A DNA stretch of 64,000 nt from Alphaproteobacteria bacterium. GTDB lineage: Bacteria; Pseudomonadota; Alphaproteobacteria; JAAXGF01. The DNA is taken from positions 1,376,001 to 1,440,000 of the forward strand of contig CAUVXB020000002.1 of assembly GCA_963555825.3 (NCBI GenBank), read 5' to 3'. The translations under genes were made by a program, and so were the position numbers. The notes under the pieces were generated by a model. The model had not been told where the DNA came from and did no database searches. It was given only the letters and a program-made list of their open reading frames with translations. This document shows positions 23,970 through 56,156 of the stretch, one piece after another; the first letter of the stretch is position 1, and the number at the start of each line of letters is the position of its first letter.

Positions 23970-24374
23970 CTATTGCTTGTCGAGCTGCCTGACGGCTGCG
24001 AGTTCCATCGCCCAGGGCTGCGCCGAGCGGCACCAGTACTGGAACTTCGGCTGGAGCTGGTCGCGCTGGCGCGCGGTACCGAGGCGGAGGTTGAGGGTTT
24101 TCGGCCCGTCGCCGACCGAGAACGAATAGAGCGGCGAGGCACATTCTGGGCAGAAGACCTGATGGTTCGTCGCGCCGCTCTCGGCCGTCTTGACGTGGGT
24201 CTTGGGCGTGCCCGAGAGCAGCTCGAAGTTCGCTTCGGGCGTATGCACCGCCCAACGAAACGCCGAGCCGGTGATCGACTGGCAGTCGGTACAATGGCAG
24301 ACGTAGACCCTGTCGGGATCAACCTCGGCCCGATACGTGATGTGCCCGCAGTGGCACGACCCGTCGATTTTCAT
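23970..24374 (-). CDS. GFA family (glutathione-dependent formaldehyde-activating-like) protein
   Basis: GSCHCG, CHCTDCQ and FCPECASP. Confidence 0.9.
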
Positions 24375-24510
24375 GTTCCCACTCCTTGCTGATGCCCACC
24401 GACGATCCAATCGGCAGGCCCAGATTATCAAACGTCGACCGGTGTTGCCTCGGTTAAGATGCGACAGGGGACCCGGCCCGGAGTTCCCACCGATTGCCCG
24501 AGGAAAACCA

Positions 24511-25281
24511 ATGTTGGGCGCCATTGCCGGCGACATCGTCGGCTCGATCTACGAGCACCGCAACATCAAGACCAAGGACTTTGCGCTGTTCGGCGCGCGC
24601 TGCGATTTCACCGACGACACCGTCTGCACGGTCGCCGTCGCCGACTGCCTGATCGCCGGTGGTGATTTCGCCGACTACCTGCGCCGCTATGCCCTGGCGT
24701 ATCCCAACCGGGGCTACGGCGGCATGTTCCAACAATGGGCGATGACCGGCGGCGGGCCCTACAACAGCTGGGGCAACGGCTCGGCCATGCGGGTCAGCCC
24801 GGTCGCCCACGCCGCGCGCGACGAGCACGACGCCCTCGAGCTCGCCCGGCGATCATCGGCGGTGACCCACGACCACCCGGACGCGGTCGCCGGCGCCCAG
24901 GCGGTCGCGCTCGCCATGTGGCTGGCGCGCGCGGGCGCCGACGCGCTGGCGATTCGCCGCGAGATCGCCGCCCGCTTCGGTTACGATCTCGCGCCGAGCG
25001 TCGACGACATCCGGCCGCATTACCGCTTCGACGTGTCGGCCGCCGGCACGGTGCCCCAGGCGATCACCTGCGCGCTCGAGGCGACCGGTTACGAGGACGC
25101 GCTGCGCAACGCGATCTCGATCGGCGGCGATTCCGACACGCTCGCCTGCATCACCGGCGGCATCGCCGAGCTCCTGTTCGGCCTGCCCGACGACATCGCC
25201 GAAACCGCGCGGCGCCACCTCACCGACGATCTGCGCGCCGTGGTCGACCGGTTTACCGACGCCGTCCAGACCGCCGAGTAG
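24511..25281 (+). CDS. ADP-ribosylglycohydrolase family protein
   Basis: GAIAGDIVGS, FTDDT, GNGSAMRVSP and GGDSDT. Confidence 0.92.
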   Translation: MLGAIAGDIVGSIYEHRNIKTKDFALFGARCDFTDDTVCTVAVADCLIAGGDFADYLRRYALAYPNRGYGGMFQQWAMTGGGPYNSWGNGSAMRVSPVAHAARDEHDALELARRSSAVTHDHPDAVAGAQAVALAMWLARAGADALAIRREIAARFGYDLAPSVDDIRPHYRFDVSAAGTVPQAITCALEATGYEDALRNAISIGGDSDTLACITGGIAELLFGLPDDIAETARRHLTDDLRAVVDRFTDAVQTAE

Positions 25282-25291
25282 CGCGCGTGGC

Positions 25292-26741
25292 GGCGATGTC
25301 CCTATCTCTGTTGAAATTCGTGGGGCAGGCGTCGCTGGTTGATGATGCTATGCTGCCTTCATGATGGTTTCAATGGCACTGTCGGCCTGAGCCTTTCTCA
25401 AGTGTTCCTGGAGAGCATTTCGGAGGATGGGCAGCTGACGATAGGCCTTGAGGCGACGGAAGGTTTTCTGGGCCTCCAGCAGGCCGGCGGCGGTCCATCT
25501 GAGCGCCATCTCGGCGTGTCTCCAGCGTTTGACGTTGCGGGTGACCTGGCGCACCGTGCCGAGCGCGTTCTCGACGATGTTGGTGCAGGCGAGCGAGCGC
25601 CGGAGTTCGTGCGGCAGGCCGAGGCGGATGACGGTGAGGATCTCGTCCAGCCCCTCCAGGATGCTGCCCGAGACGCCCGGTTCCTCATGCTCCAGACGCC
25701 GGGCCAGGTTGCGCAGCAGCCGTTCGGCCTTGTCTGCGTCGTCCTGGTCCCAGGCCTGACGGAGCGCCTTCTTGACGCTCGCATGCAAATGCAGGGGCAG
25801 GCGCTCGATGATGTTACGGCCCTTGTGGACCTGGCAGCGCTGGATGGCGGCGGCCACACCGAAGGTGTTGCGGATCGCTTTGCTGAGCGCCTTCGCGCCA
25901 TCGACGATGAACAGCCGGGGCAGCGTCGGATCGAGCCCCCTGGCGAGGAGATTGTCGAGCAAGGCCTGGACGACGACAGTGTTCTCCGTCGCCCCCTCGA
26001 CCACGGCCAGGACATGCTTGTCGCCGTTGCCATCGACGCCGATCGCCGCCACCAAGACATGGTCGCCGACATGCAGACCGTCGATCTGGATGACCAGCAG
26101 GTCGAGCTCCGAGAGGTCCGAGGCGAGCCAGGCCTTCATCTTCTTGCGCGACAGCGCCACAAAGCGCCGGGAAACGGCCGACTTCGAGGTGCCGTCGCCA
26201 CGCGCTTTCGCCAGGTCGCCCTCGGGCAGACGGACCGCGCGGTGGTACTTGCGGGTCGACACGTTCAGGACCATCAGGTTGAGCGCCCACTCGAGCAACA
26301 GGTTGCCGTCGCGCAGCACCTGCCAGCTCTCCAAACCCACCTCCTTGCCAGCATGGTCGCGAACCCGTGGCCGCTGCACTTTCACGCGGCCGCCGTGGTA
26401 GCCGATCTCGCTCTGCGTATGGCCCCAGCGATAACCCCGACGGTTCCCATGGCGACGATGTCGGGCCCCGCACACGGTCGTGGCGTCCTCCTCCATCATC
26501 TCGGCCAAGGCCTCGACCCCGGCCAGGAGACAGAACCGATCCACGCTGAGACGGACTGCGTCCATCGCGTCTGCCAGCGGCGGCATAGGAAACGAGGTGG
26601 CAAGGGCTTTCGGGCTACTGGAACTACGGATATTCTTTCCCATGGTGTCGTTCTCCCTCTTGGGTTTGCAGCACCCGGAGCCTAACGGCTCCAGGAGAGC
26701 GACACCTACCTCAACTTTTCAACATCGACCGGGACATCTCC
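25292..26741 (-). mobile_element. IS256-family element with 8-bp target duplication
   Basis: IRs GGCGATGTCCCTATCTCTGTTGAAA and (reverse complement) GGAGATGTCCCGGTCGATGTTGAAA; TSD CGCGTGGC at 25284-25291 and 26742-26749. Confidence 0.93.
25348..26643 (-). CDS. IS256 family transposase
   Basis: IQIDG, IVDG, QRCQVHK and TNIVEN Mutator-type DDE motifs. Confidence 0.93.
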   Translation of the reverse strand: MGKNIRSSSSPKALATSFPMPPLADAMDAVRLSVDRFCLLAGVEALAEMMEEDATTVCGARHRRHGNRRGYRWGHTQSEIGYHGGRVKVQRPRVRDHAGKEVGLESWQVLRDGNLLLEWALNLMVLNVSTRKYHRAVRLPEGDLAKARGDGTSKSAVSRRFVALSRKKMKAWLASDLSELDLLVIQIDGLHVGDHVLVAAIGVDGNGDKHVLAVVEGATENTVVVQALLDNLLARGLDPTLPRLFIVDGAKALSKAIRNTFGVAAAIQRCQVHKGRNIIERLPLHLHASVKKALRQAWDQDDADKAERLLRNLARRLEHEEPGVSGSILEGLDEILTVIRLGLPHELRRSLACTNIVENALGTVRQVTRNVKRWRHAEMALRWTAAGLLEAQKTFRRLKAYRQLPILRNALQEHLRKAQADSAIETIMKAA

Positions 26742-26802
26742 CGCGTGGCGCGCTGACAGCGGCCACGCATCCGCCAGGCCCCGACAAAGGGCCGGGAGCC
26801 AA

Positions 26803-27073
26803 CATGTGTGGACGGCTCCCTGTTGGCAAGAGATTTTGTGACGTTGATGCAAGCTGGTCGGGTGCTGCCATGTGTGGACGGCTCCCTGTTGGCAAGAGAT
26901 TTTGTGACGTTGATGCAAGCTGGTCGGGTGCTGCCATGTGTGGACGGCTCCCTGTTGGCAAGAGATTTTGTGACGTTGATGCAAGCTGGTCGGGTGCTGC
27001 CATGTGTGGACGGCTCCCTGTTGGCAAGAGATTTTGTGACGTTGATGCAAGCTGGTCGGGTGCTGCCATGTGT
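26803..27073 (+). repeat. Tandem array of 4 identical 66-bp units = terminal 66 bp of the IS110 downstream end
   Basis: Unit CATGTGTGGACGGCTCCCTGTTGGCAAGAGATTTTGTGACGTTGATGCAAGCTGGTCGGGTGCTGC starting at 26803, 26869, 26935 and 27001; also at 27873. Confidence 0.93.
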
Positions 27074-27874
27074 CCGGCCTTTTGGTGCGGCGTACATGGC
27101 CGCTGGCCCTAATGCGATCCGCGGGGTCGGGTCCCAGTCATAAGCACGCGCTCGAGGCGCCGTGGCTATAGCGGGTTTTCCCGATCCTCGGTTCGACCGA
27201 TTTTGCATTACGTCACTTACACTCCGCCAAACTCGTGAACGCCTTGTTTTCGTCGGCCTAGGCCGTCGCGGGCCTGCGATAGGTTCCGCCATGTCTCAGA
27301 AGCGCCCAGGCAATGCGGGCGTTCTTGTTGGCCAGCGCCACGGCCGCGACCTTGGTCGGCTTGTCGGCGATGATGTTGGCAAGCCATGGATCGGTCGTGC
27401 CGCGTCGCTTGGCGTGGCGGATGACCGTCATGGCGCCGGCGACCAGCAGCCAGCGCAGGTATTGATCGCCCTGCTTGGAGATCCGCCCCATGCGCTCCTT
27501 GCCACCGGTCGAGTTCTGTCTTGGCACCAGCCCGATCCAAGCGGCCATTGAGCGGCCCGATTTGAAGATCGACGGATTGGCAATCGAAGATGCCAGCGCG
27601 CTCGCCGTGATCGGTCCGATGCCGGGTGTGGTTTCGAGACGCAGGCTCTCTTCGTTCGTCCGGTGCCAGGCGTGGATACGCCTCTCAGCGCCGACGATCT
27701 CCCGCTCCAGCGACAGCAACTGCCGCGCCAGCCCTTCCAGGCAAGTCCGCGCCAGGGGCGGAATGCGCTCATCCGCCTCATCGCTGATCACCGCGAGCAG
27801 CTCCTTGACCTGCGGCAACCCGGTTCGCGCCACCACCCCGAACTCCGCCATGTGCGCCCGCGTAGCGTTGACCA
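27001..27874 (-). mobile_element. Partial IS110/IS1111 copy (downstream non-coding end plus 3' part of the transposase gene)
   Basis: Appears identical to 27873-28746 (offset 872); breaks at a CA dinucleotide inside the transposase gene. Confidence 0.9.
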
Positions 27875-27890
27875 TGTGTGGACGGCTCCC

Positions 27891-28129
27891 TGTTGGCAAG
27901 AGATTTTGTGACGTTGATGCAAGCTGGTCGGGTGCTGCCATGTGTCCGGCCTTTTGGTGCGGCGTACATGGCCGCTGGCCCTAATGCGATCCGCGGGGTC
28001 GGGTCCCAGTCATAAGCACGCGCTCGAGGCGCCGTGGCTATAGCGGGTTTTCCCGATCCTCGGTTCGACCGATTTTGCATTACGTCACTTACACTCCGCC
28101 AAACTCGTGAACGCCTTGTTTTCGTCGGC
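27891..28129 (-). ncRNA. Putative bridge RNA / seekRNA of the IS1111-type element (boundaries approximate)
   Basis: Position downstream of the transposase; two similar modules each containing GGTCGGGT, flanked by segments matching the IS termini (TGATGC, CATGTGT) and the right flank (CATAAGCA vs CATGAGCA). Confidence 0.6.
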
Positions 28130-29152
28130 CTAGGCCGTCGCGGGCCTGCGATAGGTTCCGCCATGTCTCAGAAGCGCCCAGGCAATGCGGGCGTTCTTGT
28201 TGGCCAGCGCCACGGCCGCGACCTTGGTCGGCTTGTCGGCGATGATGTTGGCAAGCCATGGATCGGTCGTGCCGCGTCGCTTGGCGTGGCGGATGACCGT
28301 CATGGCGCCGGCGACCAGCAGCCAGCGCAGGTATTGATCGCCCTGCTTGGAGATCCGCCCCATGCGCTCCTTGCCACCGGTCGAGTTCTGTCTTGGCACC
28401 AGCCCGATCCAAGCGGCCATTGAGCGGCCCGATTTGAAGATCGACGGATTGGCAATCGAAGATGCCAGCGCGCTCGCCGTGATCGGTCCGATGCCGGGTG
28501 TGGTTTCGAGACGCAGGCTCTCTTCGTTCGTCCGGTGCCAGGCGTGGATACGCCTCTCAGCGCCGACGATCTCCCGCTCCAGCGACAGCAACTGCCGCGC
28601 CAGCCCTTCCAGGCAAGTCCGCGCCAGGGGCGGAATGCGCTCATCCGCCTCATCGCTGATCACCGCGAGCAGCTCCTTGACCTGCGGCAACCCGGTTCGC
28701 GCCACCACCCCGAACTCCGCCATGTGCGCCCGCGTAGCGTTGACCAGCATGGTTCTCTGGCGGACCAGAAGCTCGCGCGTTCGGTGCAGCATCAGAACGC
28801 TCTGCTGCTCGACGCTCTTCACCGCGACAAAGCGCATCGTCGGGCGCGTGACGGCCTCGCAAATAGCCTCCGCATCGGCAGCGTCATTCTTGTTCCGCTT
28901 CACGTAGGGCTTCACATAGCGCGGCGGCATCAGCTTGACCTCATGCCCAAGCGCCGCGATCTCCCGCGCCCAGTAATGCGCGGTCGCACATGCCTCCATA
29001 CCAACCAGGCAGGGCGGCTGTTTCTCGAAGAAGGCCAGCACCTGACGCCGCCTCAACTGACGGCGGACGACCACGGTTCCCTCGGCGTCAACGCCATGCA
29101 CCTGAAATACGTTCTTCGCAAGATCAACACCGATCGTGATAACTTCGTTCAT
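28130..29152 (-). CDS. IS110 family transposase/recombinase
   Basis: IGVDLAK, MEAC and KNDAADAEAI (DEDD); GIGPITA and GLVPRQNSTGGK. Confidence 0.96.
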   Translation of the reverse strand: MNEVITIGVDLAKNVFQVHGVDAEGTVVVRRQLRRRQVLAFFEKQPPCLVGMEACATAHYWAREIAALGHEVKLMPPRYVKPYVKRNKNDAADAEAICEAVTRPTMRFVAVKSVEQQSVLMLHRTRELLVRQRTMLVNATRAHMAEFGVVARTGLPQVKELLAVISDEADERIPPLARTCLEGLARQLLSLEREIVGAERRIHAWHRTNEESLRLETTPGIGPITASALASSIANPSIFKSGRSMAAWIGLVPRQNSTGGKERMGRISKQGDQYLRWLLVAGAMTVIRHAKRRGTTDPWLANIIADKPTKVAAVALANKNARIAWALLRHGGTYRRPATA

Positions 29153-29319
29153 GGACGGCTCCTATTTCCCTGTGGTTCATCGAAACCACCATTTTGGCAC
29201 CTAGATGCCTGCGGGTGGGAGCCGTCCACCGCATCATGAGCAGACATTCCGAGGATTCCCTCCGCGCATAGATTCTTCCACTGCGACTCGCTAATCTCGC
29301 TGGCAAGGGAGGACGTCAC

Positions 29320-29658
29320 ATGAAGCGCCGCCTCGCGGCCATACTCGCTGTCGACGTGGTGGGCTACTCACGCCTCATGGAGGCGGACGAGGAGGCGACG
29401 CTCACGGCGCTAAACGCCTACCGCGAGGTCATCGACGGACTGATCGCGAACCACCGTGGCCGCGTGTTCGGCAGCGCCGGGGATAGCGTCGTTGCTGAAT
29501 TCCCAAGCTCGGTTGAGACGGTGCATTGTGCGGTCGATATGCTCGTAACCGAACGGTTGCCGCCCGACCTCGGCGCGGAACACGCGCAAGCCGACGTCGA
29601 GGTCGTCGAGGCCGGGACCGCTGCGCGGGATGGCCAGGATCCGGGACCGGCGCCGTGA
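29320..29658 (+). pseudogene. Chimeric ORF: N-terminus of a class III adenylate/guanylate cyclase fused to a DeoR/GlpR-like C-terminal tail
   Basis: MKRRLAAILAVDVVGYSRLM...AGDSVVAEF stops after about 73 aa; continues with DMLVTERLPPDL...DVEVVEA. Confidence 0.65.
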
Positions 29659-54636: not shown

Positions 54637-55002
54637 ATGTCGAAACGAGCGCGACATAGGGCCCGATACATCGAGGGTTGGAATTCCATGGACGCCGAAA
54701 AGCTTCTGGTATCGGTCACCGATGACTTCCTGTTCGACGATCCGGCCGACCCCGAACCCGTGACCAAGGCGACGCTCGTCGCCTATTTGCCGAAATGGCC
54801 GGCCAAGGCCGCGGCCCTGGGCGCGGCGTTCGAGTTCGATATCGTCGATAAGGTCGTGCGAGACGACGATGGTCTGTTGCTCGAGTGGTATTGGTGGCGA
54901 CTGATCGGCGCCGATGTCGAAGGTTCGGCGGTCATCAGGACGTCGGACGCGGGCGTCATCTCCGAGCGCCTGACCTATTATACCAGTGAGCGCCTGAATT
55001 GA
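54637..55002 (+). CDS. NTF2/SnoaL-like protein; C-terminus altered by IS630
   Basis: YIEGWNSMD...FLFDDP fold pattern; original tail YRTPWPLRR-stop found at 56157-56186. Confidence 0.7.
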   Translation: MSKRARHRARYIEGWNSMDAEKLLVSVTDDFLFDDPADPEPVTKATLVAYLPKWPAKAAALGAAFEFDIVDKVVRDDDGLLLEWYWWRLIGADVEGSAVIRTSDAGVISERLTYYTSERLN

Positions 55003-56156
55003 CTCTCGGGATATTCATTGATGGCGGATGATGGCGGATTGTGATTCTATGGTCTCCCACCAGATGTGGGGGATGTCATGGGATCAGCACTCAAGATACG
55101 GGATGATTTGACGCCTTTGGAGCTTCGGCGCTGGGCTCGCGTGGAATCGTACGGTCGAGCGGCGGCGCGGGCCTATGGGATCGCGAATGCTTTGGAGGAG
55201 ATGCCCCGGGCTGATGCCGCGCGGCTTGCGGGGATGGATCGCCAAACGCTTCGCGACGCGGTTGTTCGTTACAATGCAAAGGGATTGGAGGGGCTTCACG
55301 ACCGTCCAAAGGGCTACTCGCCGCGGCGGCTGACGGCAGACGAGGAAGCGGCGCTGGCGGCGGTCATCATCGCCGGGCCGGAGCCTGAGCGCGACGGGGT
55401 TTGCGCCTGGACCCGGGCCGATCTGTGCCGCTGGCTGGAGGAGCGCTTCGCCAAGACCTACCACCCCTCGAGCATGACCCGGGTTCTACGGCGGATGGGA
55501 TTTTCCCGCCAGAAGGCGCGCCCGAGCCACCCGCGAAGGGACGCCGAAGCGCAGGAGCGCTTCAAAAAAGGGGGCTTCGCGACATCCTGAAGGCGACCGC
55601 CGCGGCGCATCCCGACAAGCGCCTACAGCTGTGGTTTCAGGATGAAGCGCGCGTCGGCAACAAGGGCCGGGTGTGTCACCGGTGGTGGCGCAGGGGCGAG
55701 CGTGCCCCCGGGACGCGTCAAATCGGCTACCAGTGGGCCTACATCTTCTCCGCCGTGCGCCCGGACACCGGCGACGACGTCACCCTGGTGATGCCGAGCG
55801 TCAACGCCAAGGTCATGGACCTGTTTCTCGCACACTTCGCCGATACCCTGGACCAGGATGCGCACGCCGTCATGATGTGCGACGGCGCCGGTTGGCACGA
55901 CGAGCGCGCCCTCACCGTCCCCGACAACGTCACCTTGGCGCTGTTGCCGCCTTACAGTCCCGAACTCAACCCCGTCGAGCGGGTTTGGCTCTACCTACGC
56001 GAACGCTTCCTATCGCTCCGCGTCCTCGACGACACCGAGGCCATCATCGACGCCTGTTGCCAAGCATGGATCGACCTCATCGCAGAACCGGATCGTATGC
56101 GAACCCTCTGCGCCTATCCATGGATCATGAAGGTGATTTCATAGGCTCACTTGTAT
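54981..56156 (+). mobile_element. IS630-family element inserted at TA
   Basis: IRs (A)TACCAGTGAGC and (reverse complement) ATACAAGTGAGC; TA at 54979-54980 and 56157-56158; ends accurate to about 1 bp. Confidence 0.88.
55078..56144 (+). CDS. IS630 transposase, two ORFs joined by a probable -1 programmed frameshift
   Basis: HTH ORF to 55590; DDE ORF with WFQDEAR, CDGAGWH and YSPELNPVE; slippery AAAAAAG at 55564-55570. Confidence 0.9.

Follow-up and report, generated by a model that had tools for sequence, protein, structure and literature searches.

Tandem non-coding repeat units beside IS110 transposases (n = 468) are described in the text of a recent preprint (10.64898/2026.08.14.744561), with boundaries that are almost only LD matches. 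According to that text, the screen called two or more neighbouring copies on one strand next to a transposase, with a minimum length of 50 bp and a minimum identity of 95%, and the authors regard the units as in-place resolution of half-match recombination. The text of a second preprint (10.64898/2026.08.31.748434) reports that IS621 needs only the core and a match in one arm, and that LD-only sites are used in vivo. In related elements, ISPpu9/ssr9 of Pseudomonas putida is reported to yield partial circles and solo RNA-gene modules (PMC12288879, in part), and a tandem cargo repeat of CazIS110-1 is described as a rare by-product (10.1101/2025.10.25.684509, in part). The IS1111 group is recognized by a longer downstream non-coding region and subterminal inverted repeats of 7-17 bp (excerpts of PMC11187229 and PMC11208160), and the seekRNAs of IS1111-type elements carry the top-strand complement 5' of the bottom-strand complement (PMC11187229, same excerpts). 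Tandem duplication for IS1111 was not found in the literature searched, among the matches listed.

The locus described here lies in the window, by which we mean the whole stretch of 64,000 nucleotides that was analysed (positions 1,376,001 to 1,440,000 of contig CAUVXB020000002.1 of an Alphaproteobacteria bacterium). With 4.1 copies of 66 bp at 100% identity and an 872-bp duplicate, the array falls within the repeat-unit definition of the first preprint. Like the IS110 units in the text of that preprint, the units are head-to-tail, non-coding and next to a transposase gene, and they retain the LD arm, which is the RE here; all 26 unit boundaries found in this genome retain the LD arm and not the RD arm. 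They differ from the units of at least 50 bp in that text in ranging from 22-24 bp up to 872 bp, and in forming seven junction classes within one genome, all at the core dinucleotide. A boundary on guide-encoding DNA is seen here and is absent from the text of the preprint, where IS1111 has 0 occurrences and neither "self-target" nor "guide-encoding" is mentioned. The kind of structure is thus already in the preprint of August 2026, and what is new is the IS1111-group case with its details.

The locus resembles IS621, as far as the text of 10.64898/2026.08.31.748434 describes it, in that a core plus one matching arm would be sufficient and LD-only sites are involved. IS621 is, however, an IS110-group element with a 5' bridge RNA, for which that text gives in vitro and plasmid or genome insertion data, whereas the present element belongs to the IS1111 group and is represented by junction sequences alone. 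ISEc11, ISPa11 and ISKpn4 (Siddiquee et al. 2024, PMC11187229, in part) are similar in their 340-aa DEDD transposase, downstream non-coding region, subterminal inverted repeats and guide order; a donor-end guide and tandem end fragments, present here in and beside a predicted RNA gene, are described for none of the three in the excerpts of that paper. As in the excerpts on ISPpu9/ssr9 (PMC12288879), alternative internal sites, there internal boxes, are joined to one end at a common dinucleotide (AG there, by the recombinase; CA here). The ISPpu9/ssr9 modules have duplicated A'/B' box bounds and move to new sites, and head-to-tail end arrays are not described in those excerpts.

Organization of the locus

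The locus comprises the following features.

26743-26802, unstranded: flank between an IS256-like element and the outermost unit, ending in ...GGGAGCCAAC before ATGTGT (sequence)
26803-26868, 26869-26934 and 26935-27000, minus strand: three extra 66-bp units (Tandem Repeats Finder, unit parsing, BLAST of the IS against the genome)
27001-27872, minus strand: partial IS copy, 872 bp (repeat search, family D2, spacing 872, 100%; BLAST)
27873-29236, minus strand: full IS1111-type element, 1363-1364 bp (ends set by the six full genome copies)
27873-28129, minus strand: non-coding region, predicted to encode the seekRNA/bridge RNA in the full copy (consensus fold with covariation)
28130-29152, minus strand: transposase gene, 340 aa (ORF list; Pfam)
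27878-27890 with partner 29217-29229, unstranded: 13-bp subterminal inverted repeat, GTGGACGGCTCCC with GGGAGCCGTCCAC (sequence)

Tandem Repeats Finder reports the array at 26803-27073 with a period of 66, 4.1 copies (as assembled), 100% matches, 0 indels and a score of 542, and the repeat is also visible when the sequence is read directly. Both observations agree with the sequence-only reading, an earlier interpretation of this DNA, which had described a 4 x 66 bp tandem here with units running from the terminal CATGTGT to the internal CATGTGT; the sequence confirms these unit limits as well. The 66-bp unit starts with CATGTGTGGACGG, and the sequence past the last unit is CATGTGTCCGG. The three extra units each match the RE terminus, namely the final 66 nt when the IS is read along the transposase strand, and the fourth unit is the native end of the 872-bp partial copy. 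This partial copy is a perfect tandem duplicate of IS positions 1-872 of the full element; it includes a second complete non-coding (predicted seekRNA) region at 27001-27257, together with a transposase gene that is cut at 27872 and retains its 3' two-thirds, and an ORF at 27258-27941 in the ORF list spans the junction between the partial and full copies. Read on the transposase strand, the order is the full IS (LE, transposase gene, RNA gene, RE), the 872-nt RE-terminated fragment, three 66-nt RE-terminated fragments and the flank. The locus thereby contains five RE termini and one LE terminus.

The 340-aa ORF matches DEDD_Tnp_IS110 (PF01548, E 1.7e-16) and Transposase_20 (PF02371, E 7.9e-26) in Pfam. 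Non-coding DNA extends over 256 nt downstream of the transposase gene versus ~84 nt upstream (29153-29236). Together with the 13-bp subterminal repeats, these features place the element in the IS110 family, IS1111 group, as first assigned, with the RNA gene between the transposase gene and the RE. CA is found at both junctions of all six full copies, with no longer target duplication; because this one CA core is common to the IS and the flank, the boundary of the full element is ambiguous by 1-2 nt. The insertion flanks are alike across copies (…GTCCGCTAG-TG-GCTGAGG… on the transposase strand). An Rfam scan of 26000-29600, with E up to 1, assigned the RNA region to no curated family; chance-level matches to the bZIP intron and mir-9318 were rejected, both being far below their gathering scores.

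At the outermost unit, the flank in window positions 26790-26810 reads GGGAGCCA-AC-ATGTGT, and its best match to the target guide (…AGCCA) lies ~3 nt off the junction, in contrast to the other copies. Next to this flank is an IS256-like element (25294-26742) that encodes a 431-aa Mutator-family transposase on the minus strand, has the direct repeat CGCGTGGCG on both sides and separates the IS1111 array from an ADP-ribosylglycohydrolase gene (24337-25281). When the RE is joined to the LE (27873-27910 with 29200-29236), TTGCCA would lie, judged by eye, 17 nt upstream of CATGAT, and this could be a junction promoter like those of other IS110/IS1111 circles.

Probable guide templates and predicted RNA structure

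The genome contains two further groups of related elements besides the six copies of this element (group A), namely group B (~77% identical, 6 copies) and group C (~72% identical, 5 full and 3 partial copies). We aligned groups A, B and C with homologues from six related genomes; 16 sequences entered the fold and the heptamer count, and the deletion derivative G007c, present in the alignment as a seventeenth row, was excluded from both. The candidate guide segments are listed below.

27939-27945, minus strand: internal CATGTGT (RNA ACACAUG), probable left-donor guide template (covariation; 3' side of loop 2)
27914-27919, minus strand: TGATGC (RNA GCAUCA, 188-193), matching the other terminus in this IS
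27982-27990, minus strand: TAATGCGAT (RNA AUCGCAUUA), candidate right-donor guide template (5' side of loop 2)
28011-28017, minus strand: CATAAGC, target-guide template (covaries with the flanks of groups A, B and C)
28035-28043, minus strand: TGGCTATAG, second target-guide template (covariation with flanks)

The core differs by group at both termini within this genome (CA, TA and CT), and variation of this kind at both junctions is characteristic of an IS110-family core. The internal CATGTGT, which has a second instance at 27067-27073 in the partial copy, consists of the core and the first 5 nt of the RE, and it tracks the core between groups (cCATGTGTcc, cTATGTGTcc, tCTTGTGTcc). G004 provides a fourth state with CATCTG at both the terminus and the internal site, giving four covarying heptamer states: CATGTGT, TATGTGT, CTTGTGT and CATCTGT. 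Terminal and internal heptamers agree at 7/7 positions in 12 of the 16 sequences and at 6/7 positions in the other four. The internal CATGTGT is therefore very probably the guide template for the RE.

The target segments covary with the insertion flanks. CATAAGC corresponds to the core and the LE-side flank and is replaced by TAAACCC in group B and CTGCTTA in group C; the 138-bp units of another locus have their junction at this site as well. TGGCTATAG is the complement of the RE-side flank, with TAGCCAAG or TAGCCATG at its place in group B and AGGACATT in group C. The top-strand complement is placed 5' of the bottom-strand complement in the predicted RNA.

The consensus fold of the 16 sequences (RNAalifold) has two internal loops within a long-range stem. 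Loop 1 holds both target segments, CUAUAGCCA (RNA 65-73) and UGCUUAUG (RNA 90-97), on either side of a hairpin. Loop 2 has AUCGCAUUAG (RNA 118-127) on the 5' side and GGACACAUGG (RNA 163-170) on the 3' side, with ACACAUG at RNA 163-169. Compensatory changes were found in its stems, at pairs 114-174 (GC 11, AU 4, GU 1), 136-146 (GC 12, AU 3, GU 1) and 137-145 (CG 5, UA 10, UG 1). We note that these counts lean towards the structure, since alignment and structure come from the same related sequences.

The internal CATGTGT was earlier proposed to serve as a donor-guide template, with TGATGC as its partner. The first part of this proposal is supported by the covariation of the heptamer with terminus and core, and by the fold, in which the heptamer lies inside internal loop 2 between covarying stems. 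The second part is not supported, as the TGATGC position does not covary with the other terminus and is unpaired outside loop 2: group B has TCATGC, TGCTGC or TGATGC against an expected TAATGG, group C has CGTAGC against an expected AGATGG, and G007a is likewise out of step with its terminus. TAATGCGAT, which agrees with the other terminus at 6-7 of 9 positions and is a candidate only, appears to be a better choice for the right-donor guide, although unproven.

The 66-nt unit corresponds to RNA 170-235 and starts just past the guide. From the outer stem it has the 3' strand, together with the tail, the inverted repeat and the terminal ACACAUG. The 5' half of loop 2, which comprises the opposite guide side as well as the inner stem and its hairpin, is missing. 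Therefore the array is neither an amplification of the donor-binding loop, as had been suggested, nor a template for an RNA with several donor loops, as had also been suggested: only the 3' half of the loop is in the unit, and units in which the 5' half is not repeated cannot encode such loops.

In a separate case of duplication, three partial group-C copies (C1:945995-946514, C1:1262874-1263400 and C1:1714258-1714793) contain a 42-bp tandem duplication of the target-loop module. The duplication begins directly after the core of the target-guide template, and its copies differ at one base of the other target guide (ATTCG versus ATTGG); judged from the sequence, it would make an RNA gene with two target modules. 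In the group C' copies of the same genome, the target loop is duplicated and its two versions carry different guide variants.

Junctions across the genome

BLAST of the IS against this genome revealed arrays beside four of the six full copies, all on the same side; the three outside the window are at C1:169450-170080, C1:2233600-2234620 and C2:2097930-2099800. Parsing gave a total of 26 units at four loci, 22-872 bp long and of at least seven lengths. All 26 begin exactly at the RE terminus ("left donor"), downstream of the transposase. Every unit junction is C|ATGTGT, of the form X-CA|TGTGTGG, in which CA is the core dinucleotide found at both IS ends. Clean units, which are exact or near-exact IS prefixes, make up 17 of the 26 (three each of 66, 94, 134 and 138 bp, two each of 24 and 296 bp, and one of 872 bp), and the remaining nine are mosaics with many small deletions. 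The seven distinct clean junction positions (24, 66, 94, 134, 138, 296 and 872) all fall on CA, a dinucleotide that takes up only 13 of the first 300 IS positions. Five of the first six CA sites from the end are used (24, 66, 94, 134 and 138), the unused one being at 47. The sequence joined to the RE terminus never resembles the LE arm ATGCGGTGG in any of the 26 units. No tandem fragment ending at the other (LE) terminus was found by BLAST in this genome, and the right flanks of all six copies lead directly into unique DNA.

These junctions bear on whether the 66-bp array was built without any recombinase, by replication slippage or RecA-independent unequal exchange on the 7-bp CATGTGT. The unit is indeed bounded by a perfect 7-bp direct repeat, its copies are 100% identical, which fits a recent event, and growth from two to four copies needs no site-specific enzyme; enzyme-free slippage could thus account for the 66-bp unit alone. 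However, the six junction classes other than 66 share a mere 2-nt CA with the terminus (BLAST overlap 1-3 nt) and yet start exactly at the IS terminus. In addition, groups B and C have internal heptamers as good as those of group A, and their 7-8-nt repeat is the same and equally spaced, but end-fragment arrays are absent from both groups in this genome. Slippage also leaves the constant transposon-end boundary unexplained, and we consider it quite improbable. A boundary fixed at the IS end, a core needed at the other boundary and arrays with the RE only favour the recombinase over generic slippage.

Self-insertion would involve the recombinase by another path. An excised IS circle would enter core sites of a resident copy, and the long direct repeat of the transposase-side part would then be lost by homologous recombination, so that the IS and an end fragment remain. 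The product expected after such a collapse is the observed structure, and off-target insertion of IS621 uses LD-only and LT-like half sites according to the text of 10.64898/2026.08.31.748434. Site 66 is a perfect LD arm with core, the target guide is matched perfectly at site 138, and the CA|GAAGCG of site 296 is similar to the flanks CA|TAAGCG. On the other hand, no uncollapsed nested copy is present among the six full copies and 26 units, the 872-bp unit demands loss of the shorter repeat (491 bp) and not the longer one, and units of 22-40 bp within arrays need insertion into tiny fragments. We regard this path as unlikely, if somewhat less so than slippage.

Several other IS arrangements were observed in this genome. 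A group-A copy abuts the RE of a group-B copy end-to-end at C2:524029-525627, and the flank of the former is the inverted terminus of the latter; one IS end thus acts as a target-like sequence for another. Two diverged RE-end fragments with no IS adjacent, at C2:2633437-2633510 (~70 nt) and C1:1638220-1638260 (~41 nt), may be leftovers of excision or inserted partial circles. A "1.2-kb insert" in three group-B copies was considered as cargo and rejected, being an unrelated IS of ~1177 bp with ~80 genome copies. This IS occurs at window positions 54980-56156 (C2:1430980-1432156) and at ~80 other places in the genome, and it lies at the same position (~240) of the non-coding region in the three group-B elements (C2:525635-526811, 1068141-1069313 and 2450688-2451864), which suggests that it has a preferred site there.

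Recurrence in other genomes and metagenomes

For the 66-type junction, we used a pattern in which the conserved bases that precede the internal heptamer lead into the terminal inverted repeat. Five loci matched in the genome collection: one is clean (L063), one is degraded (L064) and three are chance matches. L063 is a clean 2 x 66 tandem of a 67%-identical IS in another alphaproteobacterial MAG. Among metagenome contigs there were 15 matches, of which ten are real end-to-guide duplications, with at least six different IS sequences and periods of 64-67 bp, and five are chance. L078 has at least three units, and L071 and L073 carry the same IS with its duplicate within two different flanks. End-to-guide duplications were thus found on ten metagenome contigs and in one or two other genomes.

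Among 401 genomes sampled evenly from the class, this genome alone has the junction pattern (three matches). The normal internal site is present in 16 of the 401, and the 66-type junction in 0 of the 15 other carrier genomes, so that the reaction is either rare or confined to an active lineage. When a terminus pattern for other junction types was applied to the carrier genomes G018, G202, G311, G207 and G068, whose termini differ from it, three isolated matches and 0 pairs were obtained. The matches to the 66-type pattern show that end-to-guide duplication is recurrent yet sporadic, and that this genome is unusually rich in it.

The related genome G007 contains short IS derivatives of ~300-390 bp without a transposase gene, L032 (G007:C119), L041 (G007:C255) and L045 (G007:C97). 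They retain the non-coding RNA region or its end together with the other terminus and may be non-autonomous elements.

This distribution also speaks to a functional idea, in which the array would serve as a working template for an RNA with several donor loops or would be a multi-end structure under selection. A second, complete RNA gene lies immediately upstream of the array on its strand, and duplicated ends move with the element in metagenomes, as the two flanks of L071 and L073 indicate. But each unit lacks the 5' half of the loop, and the duplication is sporadic, missing in two of the six copies here and in all 15 other sampled carriers. We find this idea scarcely credible, and the extra units probably have no function. 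They do multiply the RE ends, the 872-bp unit doubles the RNA gene, and the RE of the intact copy is parted from its target flank.

Mis-assembly or mis-polishing of the long-read consensus at IS ends was considered against 24 sequencing runs in the form of short assembled contigs, with four of the runs compared (X1, X3, X6 and X15). No contig spans the array in these four runs, and the nine scrambled mosaic units look like poor consensus. However, one core rule holds across four loci, and clean versions with two to three units occur in another MAG and in metagenome contigs assembled independently from short reads. The 296-type junction is also present, as a loose end at 26803, on a contig of run X3, and such junctions are therefore present in a second data set. 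The joints, compared with the runs, show skips of 61, 193 and 272 and short sides of 21-26 nt. We judge an artefact to be very improbable, only slightly less so than a working template.

Discussion

We believe it probable, with considerable reservation, that the arrays are by-products of the element's own RNA-guided recombinase, generated by half-match exchange of the RE junction with internal core sites. In this mechanism, which we derive from the junction sequences and the predicted RNA, the RE junction (left-donor arm and core) would be bound by the donor guide ACACAUG of the RNA and then cut. Its exchange partner would be a second DNA in the 3' region of the element that offers little beyond the CA core. 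For the 66-bp unit, the partner site would be the very DNA that codes for the donor guide and so has to match the RE arm and core perfectly. If the partner lies on the sister chromosome or in another copy, a single exchange would give ...RE|[x..RE], a tandem duplicate of the end fragment, and further events or later unequal crossing-over among units could raise the number to four. By an equivalent route, the product could arise in two steps, with an excised circle entering the internal site and homologous recombination removing the long direct repeat; the present data fit either route.

The sequence-only reading had proposed that the element end either recombined with its own guide DNA or slipped on the 7-bp homology. 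Recombination with internal sites stands, since 26 of 26 units have the terminus and C|A at the junction. A special role of the 7-bp homology is not supported, as five of the first six CA sites are used and most of them share only the 2-nt core. For the same reason, it is not statistically telling that junctions 66 and 138 fall on guide templates; initially counted as strong support for guide-template self-targeting, this overlap is, after the CA-site count, suggestive only. The absence of arrays from groups B and C despite their good heptamers counts against the recombinase model. Nor does the model predict the nine mosaic units, which may be consensus errors of the assembly.

A bolder claim, that the arrays are a natural record of half-match recombination by a seekRNA-guided IS1111-type recombinase, is one we put forward only tentatively and think rather doubtful. 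The locus extends LD-bounded repeat units from IS110 loci to the IS1111 group, here an element whose RNA gene is 3', and it illustrates that DNA coding for a guide inevitably provides that guide with a half-site. It also offers a natural data set within one genome, with 26 junctions, seven site classes and one fixed arm, which points to a requirement for the donor arm and core only. For annotation, such arrays account for odd tandem repeats and "truncated transposase" calls beside IS1111 elements. Bridge/seekRNA recombinases are under development as genome editors, for which off-target and self-directed reactions are relevant.

If the arrays are such a record, the reaction in vivo would require just the RE (left-donor) arm and a 2-nt core, and the element would carry a hot spot of its own in the DNA of its same-sense guides (donor at 66, target at 138). 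As heritable products, the arrays would move with the element, leading to several right ends and to duplicated or diversified guide modules. End-fragment duplication would then be a route for guide RNAs to acquire modules.
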